NCBI GenBank assembly: GCA_018433765.1
Contig: JAHDQO010000002.1
Coordinates: forward strand, 191,874 to 215,873
Source of the DNA: Tissierellales bacterium
GTDB taxonomy: Bacteria; Bacillota; Clostridia; Tissierellales; Sedimentibacteraceae
Length of the DNA stretch: 24,000 bases
Reading direction: 5' to 3'
Shown here: piece after piece, positions 3,303 to 24,000 of the stretch
Position numbering within the stretch: position 1 is the stretch's first letter
Layout of the letters: each line of letters begins with the position of its first letter
The notes under the pieces: generated by a model
The model's input: the letters and a program-made list of their open reading frames with translations, nothing else
Databases searched by the model: none
Told to the model about the DNA's origin: nothing
Translations under genes and position numbers: made by a program

Positions 3303-4178
3303 TTAAGCTCGTGGATGAGTTTTTTTAAATACATCTATAGATTTATTTTTAATATTTCCCAAATAAATTTGAGTAGCAGTTATGTTTTTGTGTCCTAACA
3401 GTTTCTGCACTGAAATTAAATCAGCTCCATTGTTTAATAAGTGAACAGCAAAAGAATTTCTTAAAATTTGAGGAGATAATTCTTTACCAATATCTAATTT
3501 TTTTTGGTAAAATTTAAGTATCTTCCATATGCCTTGTCTCGTTATAGGATGTCCGTTAAAATTTATGAAAACATATTGACTTTCCTTAGGCGCTTTTTGA
3601 CTCCTATAATTATTTAAGTAATGTTTAATTCTTTCTTCAGCAATTTTGCCTAACGGTATAATTCTTTCCTTTTTGCCATCTATATATACAAATGAAGCAC
3701 TAAAGTTTATATCTTTAATTTCTAATTTTATTAATTCACTTACTTTAATACCAGAAGAATAAAACAATTCTAAAATTGCACCATCTCTAGAACCCTTAAA
3801 GCTATTTTCATCTGGCAGATTCAATAAACTATTGATTTGTTCAATAGTTAATATTTCAGGTATTTTTTTAATTTGCTTAGGACTGTGAATTGCTATTACA
3901 GGATTGTTTGCTATTACTTTATTATTAATCAAAAAATTAAAAAAGATTTTAAGTGAAGATATATTTCTAGAAATAGTTGCAGTGCTTTTGCCCTCTTTTT
4001 GTAAATTAACTAAATAAGTTAATATCATTCCCTTTGTAGTTTGTTCTATTAATATATCATATTCTTTTTTTAAATAATCAATAAATTTTTTTATATCTAT
4101 TAAATAAGAACTTACTGAATTACTAGAAAAATCTTTACTAACTAAATATTTATTAAAATCATTAATATAATTATCCAT
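3303..4178 (-). CDS. xerD: Tyrosine site-specific recombinase XerD (chromosome dimer resolution)
   Basis: ORF 3303-4232. It has an N-terminal SAM-like core-binding domain plus a catalytic C-terminus (LRNSFAVHLL, LLGHKNITATQIY). The likely start is ATG 4178-4176 (MDNYINDF...), preceded by GGTGGGA, which overlaps the spoIIM stop by 1 nt (TAATG). Confidence 0.85.
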   Translation of the reverse strand: MDNYINDFNKYLVSKDFSSNSVSSYLIDIKKFIDYLKKEYDILIEQTTKGMILTYLVNLQKEGKSTATISRNISSLKIFFNFLINNKVIANNPVIAIHSPKQIKKIPEILTIEQINSLLNLPDENSFKGSRDGAILELFYSSGIKVSELIKLEIKDINFSASFVYIDGKKERIIPLGKIAEERIKHYLNNYRSQKAPKESQYVFINFNGHPITRQGIWKILKFYQKKLDIGKELSPQILRNSFAVHLLNNGADLISVQKLLGHKNITATQIYLGNIKNKSIDVFKKTHPRA

Positions 4179-4759
4179 TATCCCACCAGCATTTTGAATA
4201 AAATAGTTAAATAACCGCAATAAATTAAACAATATAATATTACAATAAATATATAAATTATTGTCAGTTTAATATAACTATTTGTTATTATATCAAATTT
4301 ATATGATTTAGTCTCTATTATTTTATTTTTTTTAATATAATTTGATATAGATATTGATATAAAAGAATAGTGTACTAAAAAAGGAAAATAAAAAATGTAA
4401 TCGGGTAAAGTAAAAATTAAATATAGTTTATCAGTTTGCAAAATTTTAACACAATATATTATAGATAATCCCCAAAATGTTGATATTATCATAAATAATG
4501 AATAAATTAATTTATTGTAACCTAATAAAGCAATTATAAATATAAGAATCAAAGATAAAATATTGCGAGTAAATACATTCATAAAAATTGAGAAAAAAGG
4601 TAAGCTTTTAATAGCTGTATAGTCTATATTTATTAATCTACCATGCTGAGTAATATAGTATATTATAGATGAAAATAATAAAGATATAATTAATACAATC
4701 ATTAAAAAAATTAAATTTTTTTTCTGTGAACTTGTTACTTTTCTAATTACTTTGTACAC
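4178..4759 (-). CDS. spoIIM: Stage II sporulation protein M (SpoIIM/DUF95 family polytopic membrane protein)
   Basis: ORF 4178-4819. The product is a multi-TM protein of SpoIIM-like size, in the conserved position next to xerD. I prefer the GTG start at 4759-4757, which lies 9 nt after AGGAGG (4774-4769). The ATG at 4819 lies 5' of the terminator-like hairpin and has no RBS. Confidence 0.65.
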   Translation of the reverse strand: MYKVIRKVTSSQKKNLIFLMIVLIISLLFSSIIYYITQHGRLINIDYTAIKSLPFFSIFMNVFTRNILSLILIFIIALLGYNKLIYSLFMIISTFWGLSIIYCVKILQTDKLYLIFTLPDYIFYFPFLVHYSFISISISNYIKKNKIIETKSYKFDIITNSYIKLTIIYIFIVILYCLIYCGYLTILFKMLVG

Positions 4760-4808
4760 AAATAAAAACCTCCTGTACAGCTTAATATATTTTATGCTTG
4801 TACAGGAG
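4760..4808 (-). terminator. Intrinsic-terminator-like hairpin between nudF and spoIIM; its 3' arm contains the spoIIM Shine-Dalgarno
   Basis: On the minus strand, CTCCTGTACA (4808-4799) pairs perfectly with TGTACAGGAG (4779-4770). Two more G-C pairs follow across a 1-nt bulge, leaving a 14-nt AU loop. The stem is followed by G then TTTTTATTT (4768-4760) and GTG. Confidence 0.55.
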
Positions 4809-4816
4809 TAATATGA
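4789..4816 (-). promoter_or_regulatory. Candidate sigma-E-type (mother-cell) promoter for spoIIM
   Basis: The minus strand reads TCATATT (4816-4810), a 13-nt spacer, then CATAAAAT (4796-4789). This compares with my recalled consensus kmATATT-(13-15)-CATACAmT at 7/7 and 7/8. spoIIM is sigma-E dependent in B. subtilis. Confidence 0.4.
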
Positions 4817-4819
4817 CAT

Positions 4820-7363: not shown

Positions 7364-7393
7364 TAATTTTTCCTCTATATAAATAAATTATTC
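7364..7393 (-). promoter_or_regulatory. Candidate forespore (sigma-F/sigma-G type) promoter for spoIVB
   Basis: The minus strand reads GAATA (7393-7389, overlapping the recN stop by 1 nt), a 15-nt spacer, then GGAAAAATTA (7373-7364). The -10 fits GGnnAnAHTR at every specified position. spoIVB is sigma-F/G dependent in B. subtilis. Confidence 0.4.
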
Positions 7394-9072
7394 TAAATTT
7401 TGTTACTAAAATCTATCAATTCCTTTGCGTTATTTATGGACTTTTCTGTAATATTCATTCCGCTTAAAAGTCTTGCAATTTCTTGTGTTCTTTCATCATC
7501 TTCAAGTTTTTTTATAATGCTATAAGTGCTATTTTTACTTATATTTTTCTCAATTAGTAAATGTTTATCTGCAAAAGATGCTACTTGTGGTGAATGAGTA
7601 ACACAAATTACTTGATGATTATCAGAAATATATTTCATTTTAATACCAGCCATTTGAGAAGTTTTGCCACTTATTCCAGTATCAATCTCATCAAATACTA
7701 TAGTTGGTATTAAATCAATGTCTGACATAATTTTTTTAAAAGCTAACATTAGTCGAGAAGCTTCTCCGCCAGAAACAATTTTTTGAACAGAATCTAAATC
7801 ACTTCCTACATTAGTAGATATTAAAAATTCTATGTCATCTTTTCCTTCCTCAGTAAAATCTTCTGTAGAATCAATACTTACTTTAAAATTTACATTTTTC
7901 ATATTTAAATCATTTAACTCTTGAATAATATTCTTTTCTAGTAAATGAGCAGATTTTTTTCTAATGTCGGTTAACTTGTTAGAAGATAATTTTAGCTTTT
8001 TATATACTGCATCAATTTCTTTATTTAATTTAGCTATATTTAAATCAATATCCAATAAAAATTTGAGTTCATTAGCACAATTCTCTTTATATTCTTCAAT
8101 TTTTTCAAAAGTATAACCATATTTTCTTTTCATTCTATTAATCAAAGAAATTCTTTCTTCAATTAAATTAATACTTTCTTTGTCAACTTGCAAACTTTCA
8201 GTATAATTTAAAATATTAAACAATAATTCTTGAATATTGTCTATTATAATATCTAATTTAGAATTATTAATAGAGAGTTCTTCATCGTAATCTTTTATCT
8301 TAGTTAAAATCTTTGATGAAGCTATAATATTATTTATGGCAGAAGTATCTGAATCATTAATAAATACAACTACCTTTTCTAAACTATTTTTTATTTCTTT
8401 TATATTAGATAGTTTTTTAATTTGTTTTAGTAATGAATCTTCTTCTCCATTTTTAATATTTGCTGAATTAATTTCATCAAGTTCATATTTTAGTTGTTCA
8501 ATTCTACTTTCTTTATTTTCAAAGCTATTATGTAGTTCATCAATCTCTTTTATAAGTTTTTTATAATATTTATATGTATCTTTATATTTTTTCTTAATTT
8601 CTAAAACTTCTTCAAACATCAAATTATCAAGAATTTTAATGTGATTTTCTTTTTTTAACAATGATTGATGTCCAAATTGACCATGTATATTAATTAAGTA
8701 AGAAGATACTATTTTTAAATTGTTCAAAGTAATCATTCTATTATTTATTCTTGAAATACTTTTTCCAGTGCTTAAAAGTTCTCTTGATATAATTAATAAA
8801 TTATCTTCATCTATCTCAAAACCATTTTTTATGAGTAATTCAATTAATCTATCATTTTTAGTAATATCAAAAACAGCTTCTACTATAGCTTTAGTTTGTC
8901 CTTTTCTTATAAGGTTTCTATTTGCTCTCATACCAAGCAATAATAAAACAGATTCAATTATAATAGATTTTCCTGAACCTGTTTCTCCTGTAATGATATT
9001 TAATCCTTTATGAAAATTAATATTTCCTGTTTCAAAAACAGCAAGATTATTTATACTTAAACTTAAAAGCAT
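7393..9072 (-). CDS. recN: DNA repair protein RecN (SMC-like ATPase)
   Basis: ORF 7393-9084. It has Walker A GETGSGKS, a long coiled-coil middle, the ABC signature SGGEASR and Walker B IVFDEIDTG. I prefer the ATG at 9072 because MLLSLSINNLAVFE is the usual RecN N-terminus; the ATG at 9084 (TAATG overlap with argR) is also possible. Confidence 0.93.
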   Translation of the reverse strand: MLLSLSINNLAVFETGNINFHKGLNIITGETGSGKSIIIESVLLLLGMRANRNLIRKGQTKAIVEAVFDITKNDRLIELLIKNGFEIDEDNLLIISRELLSTGKSISRINNRMITLNNLKIVSSYLINIHGQFGHQSLLKKENHIKILDNLMFEEVLEIKKKYKDTYKYYKKLIKEIDELHNSFENKESRIEQLKYELDEINSANIKNGEEDSLLKQIKKLSNIKEIKNSLEKVVVFINDSDTSAINNIIASSKILTKIKDYDEELSINNSKLDIIIDNIQELLFNILNYTESLQVDKESINLIEERISLINRMKRKYGYTFEKIEEYKENCANELKFLLDIDLNIAKLNKEIDAVYKKLKLSSNKLTDIRKKSAHLLEKNIIQELNDLNMKNVNFKVSIDSTEDFTEEGKDDIEFLISTNVGSDLDSVQKIVSGGEASRLMLAFKKIMSDIDLIPTIVFDEIDTGISGKTSQMAGIKMKYISDNHQVICVTHSPQVASFADKHLLIEKNISKNSTYSIIKKLEDDERTQEIARLLSGMNITEKSINNAKELIDFSNKI

Positions 9073-9083
9073 AATATCACCCA

Positions 9084-9536
9084 TTAACGAATATTTTTTT
9101 TAAATTCATTTAAAACACTTTCAATACAATCTAAATCTCTTATCGCAACAAATACTGTATCATCACCTGCTAAGGTTCCCACTATATCATTAACTCCCAT
9201 ATAGTCTATTGCAGAAGCACATATCTGAGCTGCTCCTGGTATAGTTCTAATAACTATAACATTTAGAGCATTATCTATAGAAACTACTGAATTTTCAAAA
9301 ATTTTATTTAATCTATCTGTAATACCTTCTTGGCTTTGACTAATTGTAGCATATCTATATTTTCCACTTTTAGCCATTACTTTAACAAGTCTAAGTTCTT
9401 TTATGTCTCTAGATATAGTTGCTTGTGTTACGTCTATACCCATAGCTTTTAAACCATCTGCTAACTCTTCTTGAGTTTCTATTTCTTTTCTAGTAATTAG
9501 TTCTAAAATTTTAGATTGCCTTGTGTATTTTTTCAT
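9084..9536 (-). CDS. argR: Arginine repressor ArgR/AhrC
   Basis: 150-aa ORF with a winged-helix N-terminus (TQATISRDIKELRLVKV) and a C-terminal oligomerisation/arginine-binding motif (GTLAGDDTVFV). Confidence 0.93.
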   Translation of the reverse strand: MKKYTRQSKILELITRKEIETQEELADGLKAMGIDVTQATISRDIKELRLVKVMAKSGKYRYATISQSQEGITDRLNKIFENSVVSIDNALNVIVIRTIPGAAQICASAIDYMGVNDIVGTLAGDDTVFVAIRDLDCIESVLNEFKKNIR

Positions 9537-9551
9537 TATTTCACCTCATTA

Positions 9552-10355
9552 TTATAATGAATTAAAGGATTCATTTACTACATCTTGAAATAAATTATAA
9601 ACTCCAATTTTATCAATAAATTTATTTTTTATTAATGCTAAATATTCTATATTTCCTTCTGCTCCTTTTATTGGAGAATAGGTTAATTTATCTATATACA
9701 TATTATTTTGCATACAATATTGCAAAATATTATTTAGCACCTCTAAATGTACTTCTTTATTTTTTACTACTCCTTTTTTTCCTACTTTATCTCTACCAGC
9801 TTCAAACTGAGGTTTAATTAAAGTAATTATTGTAGTATCATCATTAGAAATTTCTCTTACTTTTGGTAGAATATTTTTTAAAGAAATAAATGAAACATCT
9901 ATAACAACAACATCTATCTGTTCTTTAAATATACTTGAATCTATATATCTAAAATTTGTTCTTTCAAGCACTGTTACTTTATCATTATTTCTTAATTTCC
10001 AATCTAATTGTCCATATCCAACATCAATAGAATAAACCTTTTTAGCCCCGTTTTGAATCAAGCAATCTGTAAATCCTCCTGTTGAAGCGCCAATATCAAC
10101 AGCTGTACTATTAAGAATATTTATATCAAAACATTTTAATGCTTTTTCAAGCTTATATCCGCCTCTTCCTACATACTTTAGCATATTCCCTTTTAACGTA
10201 ATAGCAGAATTTACATCAACTTTAGTTCCGGGCTTGTCAACTCTTACATTATCAATAAATACATTTCCAGCCATTACTAAACGTTTTGCCTTTTCTCTAC
10301 TTTCAGCCATTCCTTTGTTATACATTAAAACATCTATTCTTTCTTTTTCAGACAT
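9552..10355 (-). CDS. tlyA: TlyA-family rRNA 2'-O-methyltransferase (S4 domain + FtsJ/RrmJ fold; 'hemolysin A')
   Basis: 267-aa ORF with an N-terminal S4 RNA-binding region and the SAM-binding motif VDIGASTGGFTD. The ATG at 10355-10353 directly abuts the TAA of the upstream membrane-protein gene. Confidence 0.9.
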   Translation of the reverse strand: MSEKERIDVLMYNKGMAESREKAKRLVMAGNVFIDNVRVDKPGTKVDVNSAITLKGNMLKYVGRGGYKLEKALKCFDINILNSTAVDIGASTGGFTDCLIQNGAKKVYSIDVGYGQLDWKLRNNDKVTVLERTNFRYIDSSIFKEQIDVVVIDVSFISLKNILPKVREISNDDTTIITLIKPQFEAGRDKVGKKGVVKNKEVHLEVLNNILQYCMQNNMYIDKLTYSPIKGAEGNIEYLALIKNKFIDKIGVYNLFQDVVNESFNSL

Positions 10356-10937
10356 TTATTCTCCTCTAATAAATATAATTCCAATTTTTTCTTCTATAGT
10401 CTTTAATAATTTAGAAGTTAATAAAATAATTTCATTAGAATTATTAATAGCTATTTCTTTTCCTAAAGCTTTTCCACCTACTGTTAATGAAGCAATTATG
10501 CAGCTCATTAATATAGTAAGAATAAAAGCTGCATCTTTTATATTATAAGTACTTATTATTGTAACTATTATAATAGTACCTGTAGCACCACTTAAGATAC
10601 CTGATATATCTCCAATAACATCACTACAAAAATTTGAAACTTTACTAGCATTTTTTACTATTCTTATAGCATAATTAGCCATTGGTATTTTATTTGCAGC
10701 CATTGAATTAAAAACCTTAATGTCTGCAACAGTAGCTGCAACACCAATTATATCAAAGATAACTCCAATTAAAATTATTACTATTAGTGTAAAAACAGCA
10801 GCATATATATTTAAGTTTCTAGTTACAAAATCTGAAATAAAGCTAAAAAATAATGTTAATAGAAAAGTAACAAAAGTAATAAAAATAATCCATTTTTTAT
10901 TATACTTTTTACCAAATAATTTTATTTTATACTTCAT
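10356..10937 (-). CDS. oapA: Small 4-TM membrane protein immediately downstream of the large RNA: candidate OLE-associated protein A
   Basis: 193-aa ORF with four hydrophobic segments (WIIFITFVTFLLTLFFSFI; AAVFTLIVIILIGVIFDIIGVAA; ISGILSGATGTIIIVTII; AFILTILMSCIIASLTVGG) and no enzymatic motif. Its position between the structured RNA and tlyA is the position reported for oapA. The family was not verified by HMM. Confidence 0.6.
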   Translation of the reverse strand: MKYKIKLFGKKYNKKWIIFITFVTFLLTLFFSFISDFVTRNLNIYAAVFTLIVIILIGVIFDIIGVAATVADIKVFNSMAANKIPMANYAIRIVKNASKVSNFCSDVIGDISGILSGATGTIIIVTIISTYNIKDAAFILTILMSCIIASLTVGGKALGKEIAINNSNEIILLTSKLLKTIEEKIGIIFIRGE

Positions 10938-10965
10938 ATTTTGTAATACTCCTCAACATAACTAT

Positions 10966-10990
10966 ATCCCCTTTTCTAGGGGATTTTTTT
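10966..10990. other. GC-clamped hairpin at the junction of the structured RNA and the 4-TM gene
   Basis: ATCCCC (10966-10971) pairs with GGGGAT (10979-10984). The run of seven T (10984-10990) follows the stem on the plus strand only; on the minus (gene) strand the stem is preceded by A7. Confidence 0.5.
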
Positions 10991-11575
10991 CTTAAAATGG
11001 CAACAAAATAAGTAAATTTTACGGCTTAGGTCTAGCAGGTTTTCCCATATATCTACTATTCGTCGCCGTTTAGCGGTTTCCCTTTAAAGATATATCTGCA
11101 AAGTTGCCTTTAGCAGAGCTAGATTACCACTTAGACCGTACTGTAATCCTTATCTTGTTTCTTAAGAACAGTCTAGGAGTTTTCCTCATTAGCCAGTATG
11201 TTTTTTATCCTCTTTTGCAATGGTAGTTTCAACAGCATAACTTATTCCTTTATGAGCTCCTAAAGTTCAAAGCTTAATTACTATTTCCCCTAGCACCACT
11301 CAAGGCAGGCTACACTGTATACAGCATTGCTGTCATACAGGTTTTCCTAAATATAGGTCTCCACGATAGTGGGGTCTACGCCCGCATGCCGTTGCGGATC
11401 GCCCCATCTACCTTACTCCCTGAAATGACCCCCGACTGGGCGTCAAAAGCCAAAACAAGAAACTTCATCGATATGCCCTTTGACGGATTTTTAGCCCCGC
11501 CCTCAAAAACATCTGTACTTACTAGAATACTGCGCCATATTAAGTACAATGATTATAGCATAAATGTTATAATAA
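10991..11575 (-). ncRNA. ole: Large structured non-coding RNA, assigned to the OLE (ornate, large, extremophilic) RNA class; boundaries approximate (+/-30 nt)
   Basis: The 647-nt gap has no ORF on the gene strand. Local G+C is far above the flanks (hand count 37/60 for 11371-11430). It holds many nested helices, for example 11382-11386/11393-11397 inside 11371-11374/11402-11405, 11441-11447/11479-11485 and 11029-11034/11132-11137. The ~600-nt size and the context xseA-xseB-[RNA]-[4-TM protein]-tlyA-argR-recN match the published OLE neighbourhood. No covariance-model check was possible. Confidence 0.65.
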
Positions 11576-11584
11576 TTCAAATAT

Positions 11585-11788
11585 TTATGCATTAAATTTT
11601 GTATCAATAATTTTTATTTTTTTTTCAGCTTCTTCTAACTTGTTTACACAAAAATTATATGCTTCAATTCCATTTTCATATTTTTTAACAAGTTCATCTA
11701 AAGTTAAATTATCATTTCTTTCAAAGTTTTCAATGATATATTTTAACTTATTAAAAGCATCTTCAAAGTTCTCAAAATTATTTGACAT
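11585..11788 (-). CDS. xseB: Exodeoxyribonuclease VII small subunit
   Basis: ORF 11585-11791. The small helical protein contains FEDAFNKLKYIIENFE...LTLDELVKKYENGIEAYNFCVNKLEEAEKKI, typical of XseB. ATG 11788 (or GTG 11791) overlaps the end of xseA. Confidence 0.9.
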   Translation of the reverse strand: MSNNFENFEDAFNKLKYIIENFERNDNLTLDELVKKYENGIEAYNFCVNKLEEAEKKIKIIDTKFNA

Positions 11789-12974
11789 CACTCACCTCTT
11801 CAAATTTTTTAATTTCAGCTTTTATTTTTAATTTATTAAAAATTATGTCAATTAATTTATTTTCACAAACATCGTTTATATTATTTATAATGTTACCATC
11901 TTTATCTAATACTAAAGCATATCCTTTTTCTAAATTTTTTCTATAATTATAACTTCTAATTTTTTCTCTATATAATTCTAAATTATATTTATTATAATTT
12001 AAATTGCTGTTCGTGAATTTTTTGAGTATATTTGCATAATTTAAAACTTCATATTTAAAGTTATTAATAGTTGCTAAAGGCATCATATTATTAATAGCAT
12101 AATTATATCCTCGTAAATTATTATAAATATAATCTATTTCGTTATTCATTTTATTTTTTAATATGAGTAACATTTTATCTATTTCTATTTGTATATTCTT
12201 ATAACTTTCAATAACAACACTTGCAGCCGCAGTTGGTGTATGACAACTTAAATCAGCTGTAAAATCAGATAAGGTCTTATCAGATTCATGCCCTATTCCT
12301 GTTACAATAGGTATTATAGAATTATATATATTTTGAGCAATATCTGTATCATTAAATACAGATAAGTCTTCAAAACTCCCTCCACCTCTACAAATCATAA
12401 TTATATCTGTTTTCTCTACTTCATTGAAATATTTTATACCCTCAATAATATTTTTTTTAGCTATATCTCCTTGCACAACAGCATTGTATATAAATATTTC
12501 TATATTCGCTGATACTTCATCAAAAGTCTTTAAGACATCTTTAATTGCTGCTCCATTTTTAGAAGTTACAAGACCAATTTTTTTAGGAAATTTAGGAATT
12601 AATTTGTTCTTGGAAAACATCCCCTTATTTTTTAAGTTTTCCTTTAAAAGTTCTAAATCTTTAAGCATGTTTCCGATACCAATCTTTGTAATCTCTTTTA
12701 CATTTATTTGATAAGTTCCTCTTTGCTCATAAACATTTAAATTTCCAGAAACTATAATCTTATCTCCATTTTTTATAGTATCTTCTTTAAAAAAACATAT
12801 GCAATTAATACATGAATCATTTTCTTGCAATGTAAAATAAGTAATATTATTTTTACTAACCTTATGATTAAGAATTTCTCCTTCAACATAAAGATTATTA
12901 AGTAAAGAATTATTACTTAAATGTTTTTTTATATATTTATTTAGTTGAGATACTTTAATTGGATTTAATTTCAT
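11778..12974 (-). CDS. xseA: Exodeoxyribonuclease VII large subunit
   Basis: 398-aa ORF with an N-terminal OB-fold region (VSQLNKYIK...LYVEGEILN), the catalytic-core motif ICRGGGSFEDL and the GIGHESD motif. It overlaps the upstream TsaD-like gene by 20 nt. Confidence 0.92.
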   Translation of the reverse strand: MKLNPIKVSQLNKYIKKHLSNNSLLNNLYVEGEILNHKVSKNNITYFTLQENDSCINCICFFKEDTIKNGDKIIVSGNLNVYEQRGTYQINVKEITKIGIGNMLKDLELLKENLKNKGMFSKNKLIPKFPKKIGLVTSKNGAAIKDVLKTFDEVSANIEIFIYNAVVQGDIAKKNIIEGIKYFNEVEKTDIIMICRGGGSFEDLSVFNDTDIAQNIYNSIIPIVTGIGHESDKTLSDFTADLSCHTPTAAASVVIESYKNIQIEIDKMLLILKNKMNNEIDYIYNNLRGYNYAINNMMPLATINNFKYEVLNYANILKKFTNSNLNYNKYNLELYREKIRSYNYRKNLEKGYALVLDKDGNIINNINDVCENKLIDIIFNKLKIKAEIKKFEEVSDVK

Positions 12975-13920
12975 TAAACCACCTATCCATAACAGGTAAA
13001 AAACAATTACCTAAAGCATTATCTGTTGAGCATCCTATATTAGGAAATATAATTTTAAAATCTTTAGAAAGTTGTTTTTCTATATTATATCTAAGATAAT
13101 TATTGGAGGATACTCCCCCTGTTATTACTATTGAATTAAAATAATAATCTTTATTTATTTCTTTAATGATATGTAATATACATTTTTTTATATAATCAAA
13201 TAATGAAGATATAATCTCTTCATTAGTATATTTTTTACTTATATATTTATCCTTTAAAAAGTTTTCTATTCCAGATAAATTTATATATGTATTTCCAGAA
13301 ATTTTAGGCATTCTAATGACATTGTTTTTATCATTTATAAATTCTTCCATTTTTTTGCCTGATGGAAATGGAAATTTCATAAAAACACCTAATCTATCTA
13401 TTAACTGCCCAAAAGTAATGTCTTTTGTTCCACCTAATATTTTAAATTCAAATCCTTTTTTTACTTTCTTTGTTAATAAAAATTCAGTAGTTCCACCAGA
13501 TATATGTATAGTTAGAAATGGATGTTTTATATTTTTATAATAATCTATTAATGCAGCTGAAACATGTCCTTCTTGGTGTGAATATTCAATGAGCTTAGCA
13601 TCACAAGATTTAGAAAGAACTTGTCCATAATTTTTACCAACCATAAAAACTGGCATATATGAGTCTTCAAAATTTCTAGGTTTACTGCTAACAGATATTA
13701 TGTGAATTTCATTAAAATTAATATTAAATTCGTTTAAAATTTCAGGTATATTACCTAAATGTTGAAAAACAGCCTCTTGCTGTCTTAACCCTACGCTTTT
13801 TTTAGGAACATTTAATTTTTTTCTAGAATCATATATAATATTATTATCATTCATGTCTATTATTGAAACAGAAGTGGTATAAGCACTTGTATCTATTCCA
13901 AGTATATAACTTTTACTCAT
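12955..13920 (-). CDS. Kae1/TsaD (glycoprotease, ASKHA-fold) family paralogue of unknown role
   Basis: 321-aa ORF. By eye it aligns to TsaD along its length: LGIDTSAYTTSVSI, HQEGH (the two His metal ligands), ISGGTTEF, GGTKDITFGQLIDRLG, LSGIENF, ITGGVSSNNYLR and CSTDNA (the Asp ligand). The N-terminal motif departs from the canonical GIETSCDET. It overlaps nusB by 8 nt (ATGAGTAA). Confidence 0.75.
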   Translation of the reverse strand: MSKSYILGIDTSAYTTSVSIIDMNDNNIIYDSRKKLNVPKKSVGLRQQEAVFQHLGNIPEILNEFNINFNEIHIISVSSKPRNFEDSYMPVFMVGKNYGQVLSKSCDAKLIEYSHQEGHVSAALIDYYKNIKHPFLTIHISGGTTEFLLTKKVKKGFEFKILGGTKDITFGQLIDRLGVFMKFPFPSGKKMEEFINDKNNVIRMPKISGNTYINLSGIENFLKDKYISKKYTNEEIISSLFDYIKKCILHIIKEINKDYYFNSIVITGGVSSNNYLRYNIEKQLSKDFKIIFPNIGCSTDNALGNCFLPVMDRWFNEIKSN

Positions 13921-19747: not shown

Positions 19748-20035
19748 TTATTCTTCGATTACATCTTCAACTAACTCATCTTCAAATAAATTAGCATCAT
19801 CTATGCTGTAATCTCCAAACAATTCTTCTTCAACAGTTGATAAGTCTTCATCCATTAATTCTAAGTATTCATTTACTTCTACCTGTTCTTCGTCTAAATC
19901 GCCAATAATATCAGCCATTTCTTCAATAACATCAATTAAAGCACTGTATAACTTACTTTCTTTTGTGTCTCCATCAAGCTCAATTCCTTCAGCTAATCCT
20001 TTTAAATAAGCAATTTTTTCATATAAGTAATCCAT
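19748..20035 (-). CDS. Small hyper-acidic protein of unknown function (from memory, resembles the family NCBI labels 'CD1247 N-terminal domain')
   Basis: 95-aa ORF with RBS GAGGAGG upstream. By hand count it has 34 D/E, 4 K and no R/H. The N-terminus is MDYLYEKIAYLKGLAEGIEL, and there is no Cys-rich or zinc-ribbon tail. It sits in a conserved slot between efp and spoIIIAA. Confidence 0.6.
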   Translation of the reverse strand: MDYLYEKIAYLKGLAEGIELDGDTKESKLYSALIDVIEEMADIIGDLDEEQVEVNEYLELMDEDLSTVEEELFGDYSIDDANLFEDELVEDVIEE

Positions 20036-20644: not shown

Positions 20645-21061
20645 TTATTCTAAAATTAAGATTCTTCCTGTTTCAACAACTATTGATATTTTTTTGGATT
20701 CTTTTGTTTTTTTATTAGTAATAGTAATAGTTTGAGAATTGTCAGGAGTACCATTATAATTAAAAGATATCTCTTGATGAATATAATCTAACTTAAAATT
20801 AGTTTTTAACTTAACTAGTTTTATTCTTTTTAGTGATTTCCTTAATTCATAACTATCATTTGTCAGAAGAATATAATATAATTCTTTATCGTTAGTCATG
20901 CTATTAATTCTGATTTTTCTTATATCATACGCTAATTCTTTTGTAAAACTCTCTAAATATGATTTATCATAGTTAAGCTTAGGTACAACTATTAATACTA
21001 TAACTATTATTAACGAAATAGTTATAATTAATTCAATTAAAGTAAATCCTTTTGTATTCAA
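20645..21061 (-). CDS. Prepilin-type N-terminal cleavage/methylation domain protein (minor pilin or pseudopilin, GspH/FimT-like)
   Basis: 138-aa ORF. The class III signal is MNTKG|FTLIELIITISLIIVIVLIV, with Gly at -1, Phe at +1 and Glu at +5. The TTG start at 21061 lies 5 nt after AAGGTG. Confidence 0.8.
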   Translation of the reverse strand: MNTKGFTLIELIITISLIIVIVLIVVPKLNYDKSYLESFTKELAYDIRKIRINSMTNDKELYYILLTNDSYELRKSLKRIKLVKLKTNFKLDYIHQEISFNYNGTPDNSQTITITNKKTKESKKISIVVETGRILILE

Positions 21062-21216
21062 GTTTACACCTTAGTCAAATAAATTTAGTATCTTAAAATC
21101 TATTTATAACAATACTATACTAATTTATATTAGCATTTTATTCTTCATAAAGCAATATTAATTAATTAATTAATAACACTTTTATTCTTAATTTTATTTA
21201 AACTTTTATATCTGTT

Positions 21217-24000
21217 TTATTCAAGTTCAGGTAAATCTTTTATTTTTAAAATTATAGAGTCTTCTGCATTACCAACCATAACATCCATTTGAACAGTTGA
21301 ATCCACTTCAGCATTTACTTCTGCATCAAATAAGATAGCATAGATTTCTTTCTTTGATAATTTAGTTGAAATTTCTAATTCATTAGAATCAGATATTGTA
21401 ATATTGCTTTCTATAGGAGTTAAATTAATATCTCCTTCATCATTAGCTTTAAATAATCTAATATTAGAAAAAGTATATTTATCTGCATTGTTTTTGCATA
21501 AGTAGATATTATCATCTAGACCATTAGTTGAAAAAACAGTTCCATATGTGTTTTTGAAATTCTTTACAACATTAGGAGTAGTGTTATATGTATTATTTAA
21601 ATATAATCCTAAATGATATATCTCAGATCCAAATGTATCATTATTAAATTCCTTAAAAGATTTTGTACCTCTATTAAACCATTCATCGTCAGCTTTAAAA
21701 TATGCTGTATTATAATCATACCAACTGTTATTAAAACTAATTAGAGCAGATTTACCATCTTCAGATATATTATCTTTTAGATTAACAATTTTTAAGTTTT
21801 CACGAATTTCTTTTCCTTTATAGAAATATAAATAAAAATTATTAACTTTTTCATTAAAATTTACTTTTATTGCAGATCTGCCTTTAAATTCGTATTGTAT
21901 TTCTGGAGGCATTGCATCAATATATTTTTCAAAATATAAATTTGTTGTATTATAATCTTTATTTTTTGCTTTACTTATTATTTTATTAATACCATCGTTT
22001 AATAAAACATCAACACTATATAGCTGACCTTCAGATATCATGTTTGAACCTGTTATTGACTTTCCATCTACTATAAATGATGTTAATTCAATTATGCCGC
22101 TTTCTGCTTCAAAGTTAAGAGTAATAGTTCTGTTTCCTTTATTCTCATTAGGTATTTCTGTATTCCATTTTTCACCTATATAATTTAAAGTTGAAACTGT
22201 GTCTGTATCAGAAATATCATTATACACTTCTGCTTCAACTGAAAAATTATTTTCTATATTATTAGCATATTTTAAATCCACATTTTTTGTCATAGTATAA
22301 GGTATTTTAGATACAATTTCAGAAGGTATATTAGTATTTAAAATTGATAATTTTGTTTTATCATCTACAGTAACTGATATTGCAGCAGTTGTAGAATCTT
22401 GAACCATATCTAAATGTATATCCATATTAGGTAAATTGGTATTTGATATTGTTCTTGAGATGTTTGGAAATACCCTATATGAAGAAGAACCATCTAAGTC
22501 TTTATATTCAATATATGTATTAAGTTTACTTAAATCGTCAAGTTCAGGGTTTATATCACCTATAATATATGTTCCATTATTAAATACTCTGTTAACTTTT
22601 ATTTTAATAATTATAGGATCAGCTTCATAATATTTATTGTTAGGATTACTGTCATTAAGAACATATTTTACATCATTAATACTTCCAGTAATAGTATTAG
22701 TATTTGCATTTAAAAATGTACTGATATTAGTAATTTTTTTAACAGTTCCATCAATAATTGTCTCAATTTCTATATTTGGATTAACATTAAATTCATTAGG
22801 AAGTTTTGCATTAAAGTTTATTTGTTCTAGTGGTAGTTCTTGTATAATTTCATCACCTATTTGTGAATATATTATATCAATATCATCACCATTTGAGGCT
22901 ACATGATAATAATTATTTAAATTTGTATTATTTGATTTTTGTGCAACTGCTTTATTATTATTACTATCAATATTAAATCCAATAACATGTGTAGTAATGT
23001 TTATATCATCACTGTTATTTCCTAATAGAGTCTCAGCAACATTTAATACATACTCAGAACCCTTTAAAGTGCTGTTTGATCTAGGAATTATGAAATATTT
23101 ATTATCTTTATCAAAAAAATAATAATAATAACTGTAATTTTCATATTCATCAGGAAGCTCTATATCTCCATAATAATATGTATAATCGTTACTCCATTTC
23201 CTTTCAACCCATGTTGATTGTGTTTCATATCTTCCATTAATATTCTCATAATTACTTTTATTAAATCTAATAACAGGAATATTATCATAATAATGATGTA
23301 TATAATAATAACCACTATGCCAGCTATTACTGTTATACCTTCCTGTTATATTTTTATACCTGCCTTTAATAAAAACACTATTTTCATTAATTTCTTCAAA
23401 ATTATATACTTTCCTATGAACGTTTTTGATTTTTTTCCCATTAAAGTAAAATTCATCTATTATATTCCTGTTATCATCATAATATCCTTCTACCCATTTA
23501 GTTGTTTTTTCATAATGTCCTTCTATCCATCCTTTTGATTTAGTATAGAAGGTCGGCTCTCCATCAGTTAACAATATTATATACTTTTCTGCATCATCAT
23601 TGCCTGAATTCAACAAATTATAATAGGCTAAACGCAAACCATCTCCTGTATTAGTTCCTCCATCAGCACTTAAAGAATTTACAACATCATTTATTTTTGT
23701 TATTTGCTGACTATCATCTAAATCTGCAAAAACTTTACTATTAAATTGAACTACATTTGCTTTACTATTAAAATCTACTATAGATATTTTTATATTGCTT
23801 CCAGTACTCAGTTTGCTAACAAAATTTCTAAGAATCTTTTTTACAGCTGATATACGAGACATTTTTTTATTATTATATCTTGTCTTATCTTCCATACTGC
23901 CTGAAGTATCTACTACTAGAACAACTTCTTTATCCTTATCTTTTGTAACATCATTATAAGGTATGATTTGAGGATCGATGATATACTTTATGATAAAACT
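21217..24000 (-). CDS. Large secreted or pilus-associated von Willebrand factor A (vWA) domain protein; N-terminal end runs off the window
   Basis: The track ORF begins at the ATG at 23895, but the frame stays open to 24000. My translation of 24000-23896 is SFIIKYIIDPQIIPYNDVTKDKDKEVVLVVDTSGS, which supplies the MIDAS DxSxS motif. The other vWA elements follow: ADGGTNTGDGL, YIILLTDGEPT and THVIGFNID. After that comes ~580 aa of beta-rich sequence with no recognisable motif. Confidence 0.8.
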   Translation of the reverse strand, partial: SFIIKYIIDPQIIPYNDVTKDKDKEVVLVVDTSGSMEDKTRYNNKKMSRISAVKKILRNFVSKLSTGSNIKISIVDFNSKANVVQFNSKVFADLDDSQQITKINDVVNSLSADGGTNTGDGLRLAYYNLLNSGNDDAEKYIILLTDGEPTFYTKSKGWIEGHYEKTTKWVEGYYDDNRNIIDEFYFNGKKIKNVHRKVYNFEEINENSVFIKGRYKNITGRYNSNSWHSGYYYIHHYYDNIPVIRFNKSNYENINGRYETQSTWVERKWSNDYTYYYGDIELPDEYENYSYYYYFFDKDNKYFIIPRSNSTLKGSEYVLNVAETLLGNNSDDINITTHVIGFNIDSNNNKAVAQKSNNTNLNNYYHVASNGDDIDIIYSQIGDEIIQELPLEQINFNAKLPNEFNVNPNIEIETIIDGTVKKITNISTFLNANTNTITGSINDVKYVLNDSNPNNKYYEADPIIIKIKVNRVFNNGTYIIGDINPELDDLSKLNTYIEYKDLDGSSSYRVFPNISRTISNTNLPNMDIHLDMVQDSTTAAISVTVDDKTKLSILNTNIPSEIVSKIPYTMTKNVDLKYANNIENNFSVEAEVYNDISDTDTVSTLNYIGEKWNTEIPNENKGNRTITLNFEAESGIIELTSFIVDGKSITGSNMISEGQLYSVDVLLNDGINKIISKAKNKDYNTTNLYFEKYIDAMPPEIQYEFKGRSAIKVNFNEKVNNFYLYFYKGKEIRENLKIVNLKDNISEDGKSALISFNNSWYDYNTAYFKADDEWFNRGTKSFKEFNNDTFGSEIYHLGLYLNNTYNTTPNVVKNFKNTYGTVFSTNGLDDNIYLCKNNADKYTFSNIRLFKANDEGDINLTPIESNITISDSNELEISTKLSKKEIYAILFDAEVNAEVDSTVQMDVMVGNAEDSIILKIKDLPELE

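Follow-up and report, generated by a model that had tools for sequence, protein, structure and literature searches.

A full-length OLE RNA match and an OapA-type membrane protein gene between xseB and tlyA in a Tissierellales bacterium

We analyzed a stretch of 24,000 nucleotides of contig JAHDQO010000002.1 from a Tissierellales bacterium (assembly GCA_018433765.1), hereafter the window, which carries a match to OLE (ornate, large, extremophilic) RNA, a large membrane-associated non-coding RNA of bacteria, followed by a gene for a small membrane protein of the OapA type. The window contains 28 complete genes, all window genes lie on the minus strand, and window coordinates are used throughout. 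The list of open reading frames (ORFs) and a count of the gaps show that the sole long intergenic stretch is 10938-11584 (647 nt), as had been noticed in an earlier annotation made from the letters alone (the first-pass annotation). The next-largest gaps between minus-strand genes measure 155, 106, 72, 72, 54, and 40 nt, and positions 1-784 belong to an open minus-strand frame that exits the window and are thus coding. The earlier statement that the gene strand of the gap has no ORF holds in substance, since the longest one found encodes 57 aa from a TTG start and none reaches 60 aa. The G+C content is 39% in the gap, 41% in its OLE part, and 25% in the remaining window; the hand count of 37/60 given earlier for 11371-11430 was exact.

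The whole window was scanned against Rfam 15 at gathering thresholds. The scan returned a single match, RF01071 (OLE), at 10981-11554 on the minus strand (574 nt, not truncated), which covers model positions 1-616 of 616 and scores 474.8 bits (gathering score 50; E 1.2e-136). The first-pass annotation had read the gap and the following gene as an OLE/OapA locus and had guessed 10991-11575 for the RNA; this reading is supported by the RF01071 match, by the OapA hallmarks of the downstream protein, and by the linkage of OLE to oapA described below. The OLE RNAs of the cultured strain Dethiosulfatibacter aminovorans and of another relative score 478.9 and 478.7 bits, which indicates that the window copy is as good as theirs. 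When the Rfam structure was projected on the window sequence, 130 of the 145 model pairs were standard. The single-sequence thermodynamic fold recovered most family helices (z = -2.9), and none of 100 dinucleotide shuffles was as stable.

Four pairs of complementary segments had been picked out by eye in the gap, and all of them are perfectly complementary. Two belong to the family fold: 11382-11386/11393-11397 and 11371-11374/11402-11405 together make up the hairpin that is numbered P6/P6.1 in the literature. The other two, which we tried as conserved alternative pairings and rejected, are not model pairs; 11441-11447/11479-11485 (7 bp) uses arms of P4 and P5.1, and 11029-11034/11132-11137 (6 bp) uses two strands of the long 3'-domain helix. 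Each of these stems brings together arms taken from two different helices that covary, so the complementarity is probably fortuitous or reflects an alternative pairing.

The comparison with relatives supports the identification of the RNA. An alignment of the 193-aa downstream protein with 19 homologues (A1) was used to scan one genome per GTDB species, which yielded at least 80 loci; locus counts from here on refer to the matches listed, which carry handles of the form L001, and the best OapA identity among them was 58%. A search with the window RNA (nhmmer) found OLE directly upstream of oapA and on the same strand in 76 of the 80 listed loci. The four exceptions are two loci without upstream DNA (L020 and L051) and two without OLE at the Rfam gathering score (L030 and L064). 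In these last two, from a Gudongella metagenome-assembled genome (L030, 1-727) and from Anaerofustis stercorihominis DSM 28733 (L064, 1-5000), the oapA homologue is followed by tlyA and recN, with argR additionally present in L064, and neither nhmmer nor Rfam at the gathering score detected OLE upstream. They could be cases in which the RNA was lost and the protein retained, or in which the RNA is very divergent.

A structure-blind MAFFT alignment of 69 full-length OLE RNAs (the window and 68 others; A2) was used for conservation and covariation. OLE RNAs are about 600 nt long and nearly invariant at roughly a quarter of their positions; of the 202 columns conserved to at least 90% in the 68 other RNAs, the window keeps 199. 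With the Rfam structure laid on A2, 86.4% of cells were paired, compared with 41-46% when partners were slid by 1-3 columns, and at 115 of the 145 pairs both partners change. The covariation score was 0.50, compared with 0.10-0.15 for the slid controls, and none of 500 shuffles reached any of five measures; covariation across related genomes, which the first-pass annotation had proposed to look for, is thus strong. The weakest helices were the length-variable P7 and distal P9, for which a structure-blind alignment is expected to fail. Two helices outside the Rfam structure line, the closing helix and P3/P3.1, had 85.5% of cells paired and a score of 0.58, compared with at most 0.20. In the closing helix, which also appears in the single-sequence fold, 96% of cells were paired and four of the five pairs change on both sides; in the 8-bp part of P3/P3.1 the corresponding figures were 87% and all eight pairs.

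These results also bear on a fallback that the first-pass annotation had kept only because it could not align the gap to the family by eye, namely that a new class of large structured RNA merely occupies the slot of OLE. The OLE model matches every one of its positions here, nearly all highly conserved columns are shared with the 68 other OLE RNAs, and the window RNA itself retrieves OLE at the 76 other loci. The full-length match excludes this explanation, and its probability is negligible.

The elements tied to function in published work are all kept in the window OLE, as judged from its sequence (Table 1). The P3/P3.1 helix has a published length of about 12 bp and has been proposed to span the membrane (PMC12265935), and the A-rich loop of P4 is a dimerization contact (PMC12265935). 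The J4a/5 stretch contains the AUCGAU palindrome, a partial OapA site, and forms a kink-turn strand bound by OapC (PMC9723947, PMC12286853, PMC12265935); both kink-turn strands, AUCGAUGAAG and CGUGGAGAC, are intact. The CUAG and AUCGAU palindromes, which are mapped OapA sites (PMC12265935), are intact as well, and so is the GCGA loop of P14.1. OapB binds the GNRA tetraloop of P13 together with a one-nucleotide bulge (PMC7936274); P13, helix 20 of the model, was 93% paired in A2, with seven of its eight pairs covarying. The terminal loop of P9 reads GGGCCC, UGGCCA, or GGAUCC in other listed loci, and the switch among GGCC, GAUC, and AGCU has been taken as evidence for a symmetric kissing loop between two OLE molecules (cryo-EM; PMC12286853). 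The invariant loop sequences of P5.1/P6.1, GACGCCCAGUC and CAACGGCAUG, are present. The predicted dimerization elements, that is, the A-rich P4 loop, the complementary P5.1/P6.1 loops, and the palindromic P9 loop, thus all appear to be in place.

Table 1. Features of the OLE and oapA region and its neighbors, in order of transcription (window coordinates).
Feature	Positions	Strand	Basis or remark
xseA	11778-12974	-	TIGR00237, 369.7 bits, above cut-off; upstream neighbor
xseB	11585-11791	-	TIGR01280, 54 bits, above cut-off; upstream neighbor
Sigma-70-type promoter-like site, TTGAAT-17 nt-TATAAT	11552-11580	-	Upstream TG (extended -10); scan score 10/12
OLE RNA	10981-11554	-	Full-length RF01071 match, model pairs, conserved columns, covariation
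P3/P3.1, 5' arm, CAG + AUGUUUUU	11505-11515	-	Pairs with 11194-11205; 8 + 3 bp, one bulged A
P4 hairpin, conserved A-rich loop, CUAAAAAU	11482-11501	-	Helix 1, 99% paired
J4a/5, AUCGAUGAAG	11463-11472	-	Exact consensus; most positions invariant or at least 90% conserved in A2
Minimal P7 hairpin, CCUAUAUUUAGG	11346-11357	-	34-nt distal insert of the model reduced to 2 nt
P9 palindromic terminal loop, GAGCUC	11254-11259	-	End of the long P9 arm
P13 hairpin, CUGC-U-AAAG GCAA CUUUGCAG	11096-11116	-	GCAA (GNRA) tetraloop, single bulged U
Closing helix (P1), 3' arm, GCCAU	10997-11001	-	Pairs with AUGGC at 11534-11538; outside the Rfam structure line
Hairpin AUCCCCU-AGAAA-AGGGGAU	10966-10984	-	Just after the conserved 3' end of OLE
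GAGGAG ribosome-binding site	10949-10954	-	11 nt upstream of the oapA ATG; read from sequence
oapA	10356-10937	-	193 aa, four-helix membrane protein, DVIGD (D106, D110)
tlyA-family methyltransferase	9552-10355	-	Exceeds an NCBIfam cut-off; downstream neighbor
argR	9084-9536	-	Exceeds an NCBIfam cut-off; downstream neighbor
recN	7393-9084	-	Exceeds an NCBIfam cut-off; downstream neighbor

Sequence, model, and position behind OLE together identify the 193-aa protein as a predicted OapA-type four-helix membrane protein. Its description in the first-pass annotation, with four transmembrane (TM) helices and a stop codon abutting the ATG of the tlyA-family methyltransferase gene, was confirmed by the ORF list, hydropathy, and the predicted model. 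Hydropathy placed hydrophobic windows at about residues 14-39, 37-76, 107-140, and 133-158. The AlphaFold2 model (mean pLDDT 78, pTM 0.66) is all-helical with six helices, four of which (H14-41, H44-70, H85-131, and H137-165) cover hydrophobic segments; this agrees with OapA being a small protein of four TM helices that has no soluble domains. The DVIGD motif at residues 106-110 is invariant in all 20 aligned sequences of A1; DxxxD is a hallmark of OapA that is absent from CNNM domains (PMC11332333). The N-terminus, MKYKIKLFGKKYNKKW, contains seven lysines, and K15 and W16 are conserved in A1; it may correspond to the cluster of basic residues that OapA carries on its cytoplasmic face. In a Foldseek search with the model, the four best PDB matches were all to MtCorB, a CNNM protein from archaea (7M1T and 7M1U; E 8.5e-3 to 8.9e-2, probability 1.00, TM 0.44-0.46), and the next matches had E above 1; 7M1U is also the top structural match reported for OapA of Halalkalibacterium halodurans (PMC11332333). 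Homologues at E of 0.001 or less number 5750, several of them labeled CNNM/DUF21 or "CorB" by their source or by precomputed PF01595 hits, and such precomputed hits occur in some homologues of 50-55% identity.

By its published description, H. halodurans OapA shares with the window protein its place after ole, a length of about 190-200 aa, four TM helices, DxxxD, and a predicted fold that is CNNM-like and has CorB as its top structural match, and probably also a cluster of basic residues near the N-terminus. Bacillaceae OapA orthologues encoded behind OLE are 40-44% identical to the window protein among the matches listed. The MpfA/CorB/CNNM (PF01595) Mg2+ transporters have a distantly related transmembrane fold, as far as the prediction goes, and a related role in Mg2+ handling has been proposed for OapA and MpfA/CNNM (PMC11332333, PMC12265935). 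In contrast to these transporters, the window protein has no PF01595 hit at E 10, possesses four helices rather than three, carries DxxxD, and lacks a CBS pair or CorC domain, ending 28 residues after its fourth TM helix (H137-165). We rejected a canonical CNNM/MpfA transporter because of the missing PF01595 hit and the missing CBS and CorC domains.

Several observations weigh against reading this region as an ole-oapA locus. The 193-aa protein had no match in Pfam or NCBIfam, even at E 10, and none among PDB sequences, and its fold match to CorB is modest (E 8.5e-3, TM 0.46). Because no family model matches, the OapA assignment rests on motifs, fold, homologues, and position. The partner genes oapB (ybzG) and oapC (ybxF), which would be expected in an OLE-bearing genome together with the absence of mpfA, lie outside the window, as no KOW-motif or L7Ae-type protein is encoded by any of its 28 complete genes. 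P7 is a hairpin of only 4-5 bp, the sole structural economy of this RNA, and three highly conserved positions are altered (11520, 11190, and 11139), the change at 11139 being compensated by its pairing partner. In addition, the functional statements are all carried over from other species. As for OapB, the 95-aa ORF after efp (19748-20035) was considered as a candidate and rejected, as it encodes a CD1247 N-terminal domain protein.

The truncated P7, the three altered positions, and the 15 non-standard model pairs could also be taken as signs of a decaying, non-functional OLE relic. We consider a relic extremely unlikely, since the score of the window RNA equals that of its relatives, one of them a cultured strain, and since all protein-binding and dimerization motifs are intact. 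The oapA ORF is likewise intact and retains every residue that is invariant in A1, and a near-identical copy of the sequence occurs in an independent assembly (L001). The short P7 is common to a whole clade, being found in the six closest listed relatives (L007, L004, L016, L011, L003, and L002), and P7 is not a dimer contact (PMC12265935). Variation from J6/7 to P8 has been described in OLE RNAs (Fernando & Breaker 2024). We conclude that the region is almost certainly a standard ole-oapA locus, carried by a member of the Bacillota that forms spores and has very AT-rich DNA.

The window RNA resembles the "full-length" type of OLE (Fernando & Breaker 2024) in length class, conserved nucleotides, all model helices, P1, P3, the OapB site, the kink-turn strands, the dimerization loops, the downstream oapA, the nusB-xseAB...tlyA-argR-recN surroundings, and a probable Bacillota host. 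It differs in its 4-5-bp P7, in the AGCU (GAGCUC) rather than the commoner GGCC palindrome of P9, in the absence of ispA and dxs from the cluster, and in the lack of a terminator after the RNA. These four traits are common to the nearest listed relatives, except for the AGCU palindrome in L016, and both variation in the P7 region (Fernando & Breaker 2024) and the AGCU palindrome (PMC12286853) have already been published. Two variants have been defined: variant 1 has shortened P7, P8, and P9, often without the OapB site, and variant 2 lacks both P7 and P8 (Fernando & Breaker 2024). The window shares only the shortened P7 with variant 1, which was rejected because P8 (about 12 bp) and the long P9 arm are of full size and P13 retains both its GNRA loop and its bulge; variant 2 was rejected because P7 and P8 both exist. 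The full size of P8, P9, and the OapB site therefore assigns the window RNA to the full-length type and to neither variant.

The genes around OLE represent the published OLE neighborhood in compact form. In the order of transcription, the window encodes a VWA-domain protein, a ComGD-like pilin, efp, a CD1247-type small protein, spoIIIAA-AH, an Asp23-family protein, nusB, a TsaD/Kae1-like protein, xseA, xseB, OLE, oapA, the tlyA-family methyltransferase, argR, recN, spoIVB, spo0A, a NUDIX hydrolase, a 213-aa ORF, xerD, a phosphopentomutase-type (metalloenzyme superfamily) gene, and a pyrimidine-nucleoside phosphorylase. Of the neighborhood that the first-pass annotation had given as that of OLE, nusB, xseA, xseB, tlyA, argR, and recN were recovered with Pfam and NCBIfam, and ispA and dxs are absent here. 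In many listed relatives, xseB and OLE are about 1 kb apart, and oapA and tlyA about 1.9 kb. The compact order xseB-OLE-oapA-tlyA is also found in the nearest listed relatives (L002-L004, L007, L011, and L016), which suggests that the compact form is a lineage trait and not the result of recent decay.

The missing ispA and dxs, which lie next to OLE in many other genomes, and the additional DNA at those positions in many relatives raise the question of whether the gap is the remnant of such a protein gene, which the first-pass annotation had named as an outcome that would overturn the OLE reading. OLE, however, takes up 574 of the 647 nt, leaving 30 nt upstream and 43 nt downstream, and most of this remainder is accounted for by a promoter-like site, a hairpin, and a ribosome-binding site. 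This arithmetic and the lack of any gene-strand ORF longer than 57 aa exclude the scenario, and the closest listed relatives are equally compact; we see practically no chance that the gap is a degraded gene.

The promoter-like site lies between the stop codon of xseB and OLE and not in front of oapA. Of the 68 OLE loci, 50 have a comparable site (score of at least 10/12, mostly with a perfect TATAAT and often with the extended -10 TG) at a distance of 14-27 nt before the invariant CAGUAUUCUAGU, compared with 3.7% of shuffled upstream regions. This distribution suggests that a dedicated promoter inside the operon is a family trait.

At the other end of the RNA, the hairpin at 10966-10984 has 7 bp, and its first stem bases are the last 4 nt of the Rfam match. 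Its predicted stability of about -10.9 kcal/mol (z -1.4) is statistically unremarkable on its own. No U tract follows it on the minus strand, and hence there is no terminator between OLE and oapA; the spacing between the two is 43 nt here and 19-37 nt, without a hairpin, in the closest listed relatives. These features suggest that ole and oapA are, most likely, co-transcribed in this lineage. Read on the plus strand, the same hairpin precedes TTTTTTT and receives a score typical of an intrinsic terminator, with no plus-strand gene nearby; the T tail comes from an A run that makes up the poorly conserved 3' end of the match to the OLE model.

A different hairpin is found at the 3' side of OLE elsewhere in the family. 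In 26 of the 68 loci, from many genera, a hairpin of the form (A)GCUGAUAGC-loop-GCUAUCAGCUUU(U/A)U starts 7-18 nt past the 3' end of OLE; examples are L012 (4895-4925), L009, L018, L031, L060, L065, L023, L005, and L028. It resembles an intrinsic terminator, its sequence and not merely its shape is conserved, and it lies outside the Rfam model. The window does not have it, and the 10966-10984 hairpin sits at its place. Among the papers found to mention both OLE RNA and a terminator, no title or abstract addresses this conserved hairpin.

The arrangement at the 3' end invites the explanation that, in this lineage, OLE is not a free trans-acting RNA but works chiefly in cis: as a very long structured leader of the oapA mRNA, it would regulate the expression of oapA or link assembly of the ribonucleoprotein (RNP) to OapA translation. 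The missing U-tract terminator, the short spacing to oapA here and in the closest relatives, and a promoter-like site that precedes OLE and not oapA are in line with such a leader. Nevertheless, we regard it as very unlikely, given that the U-tract terminator-like hairpin behind OLE in 26 of the 68 other loci suggests that a free RNA is made there and that oapA expression depends on read-through. Moreover, OLE occurs in H. halodurans as a discrete RNA of high abundance and functions together with the OapA protein (PMC12265935), and co-transcription is compatible with processing.

A related proposal concerns only the compact clade, that is, the window and its Dethiosulfatibacter-like relatives. 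Here, ole-oapA would be one obligatory transcript from the promoter before OLE, and the folded OLE would be captured in cis by nascent OapA at the membrane during translation; other clades would release OLE at the GCUGAUAGC...GCUAUCAGCUUU hairpin, which, rather than being a generic terminator, might extend the RNA at its 3' end in a way not recognized so far. We offer this as a speculation and consider it unlikely.

The window also contains features that stand apart from OLE. A 321-aa TsaD/Kae1-family ORF (12955-13920, minus strand) lies between nusB and xseA and scores 134.8 bits against an NCBIfam TsaD cut-off of 207.8. A homologue occupies the same position in about 30 of the listed OLE loci, so that it looks like a divergent paralogue traveling with the cluster. 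The 213-aa ORF between the NUDIX hydrolase and xerD (4178-4819, minus strand) has no Pfam or NCBIfam match and overlaps the start of xerD by 55 nt. At 20645-23895 (minus strand), upstream of efp, an 892-aa protein with an N-terminal VWA domain as its only detected domain is followed by the ComGD-like minor pilin, and the two genes may mark where a type IV pilus or competence cluster ends.

OLE hosts belong to the Bacillota and are typically anaerobic or extremophilic. The sporulation genes spo0A, spoIIIAA-AH, and spoIVB and the RecN matches fit a Bacillota host (Clostridia or Tissierellia-like), as far as the sequence indicates. The nearest named RecN sequences are those of Sedimentibacter, at 53-55% identity, and only three other assemblies exceed 59%; identities this low suggest that the host belongs to a poorly sampled Bacillota lineage. 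The host has a G+C content of about 25%, and only a few Logan or NCBI contigs are closer to it than Sedimentibacter.

The mechanism of the OLE particle has been studied in H. halodurans and two Clostridium species (PMC12265935, PMC12286853). In H. halodurans, OapA binds OLE RNA and localizes it to the membrane (PMC12265935). Judging from the window sequence, transcription of OLE in the present organism would start at a strong promoter of its own directly after xseB, probably supplemented by read-through of the operon, and the 3' end of the RNA would be set by processing or by the short hairpin. By analogy with the species studied, two OLE molecules would dimerize through the P4, P5.1/P6.1, and P9 loops; OapA dimers would bind OLE and hold the RNA at the membrane, possibly with P3 crossing it; and OapB, OapC, and bS21 would join the particle. 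The particle would aid tolerance of short-chain alcohols, cold, excess Mg2+, and poor carbon sources, and it may do so through control of an ion pathway, similar to that of CNNM proteins, that OapA forms.

The locus is a routine example of a known, well-described family and is recognized by any scan with Rfam. Its peculiarities either fall within variation already published or recur in its relatives, and this copy adds no new feature. OLE is nevertheless an interesting class of large bacterial non-coding RNA, and recent cryo-EM work suggests that it may even span the membrane. The modest value of the present copy is that it comes from a poorly sampled, very AT-rich, spore-forming lineage and represents a stripped-down locus, with a minimal P7, without ispA and dxs, and without a terminator. 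That such a locus keeps every published protein-binding and dimerization element supports the view that these elements, and not P7 or the isoprenoid genes, are the core of the system.

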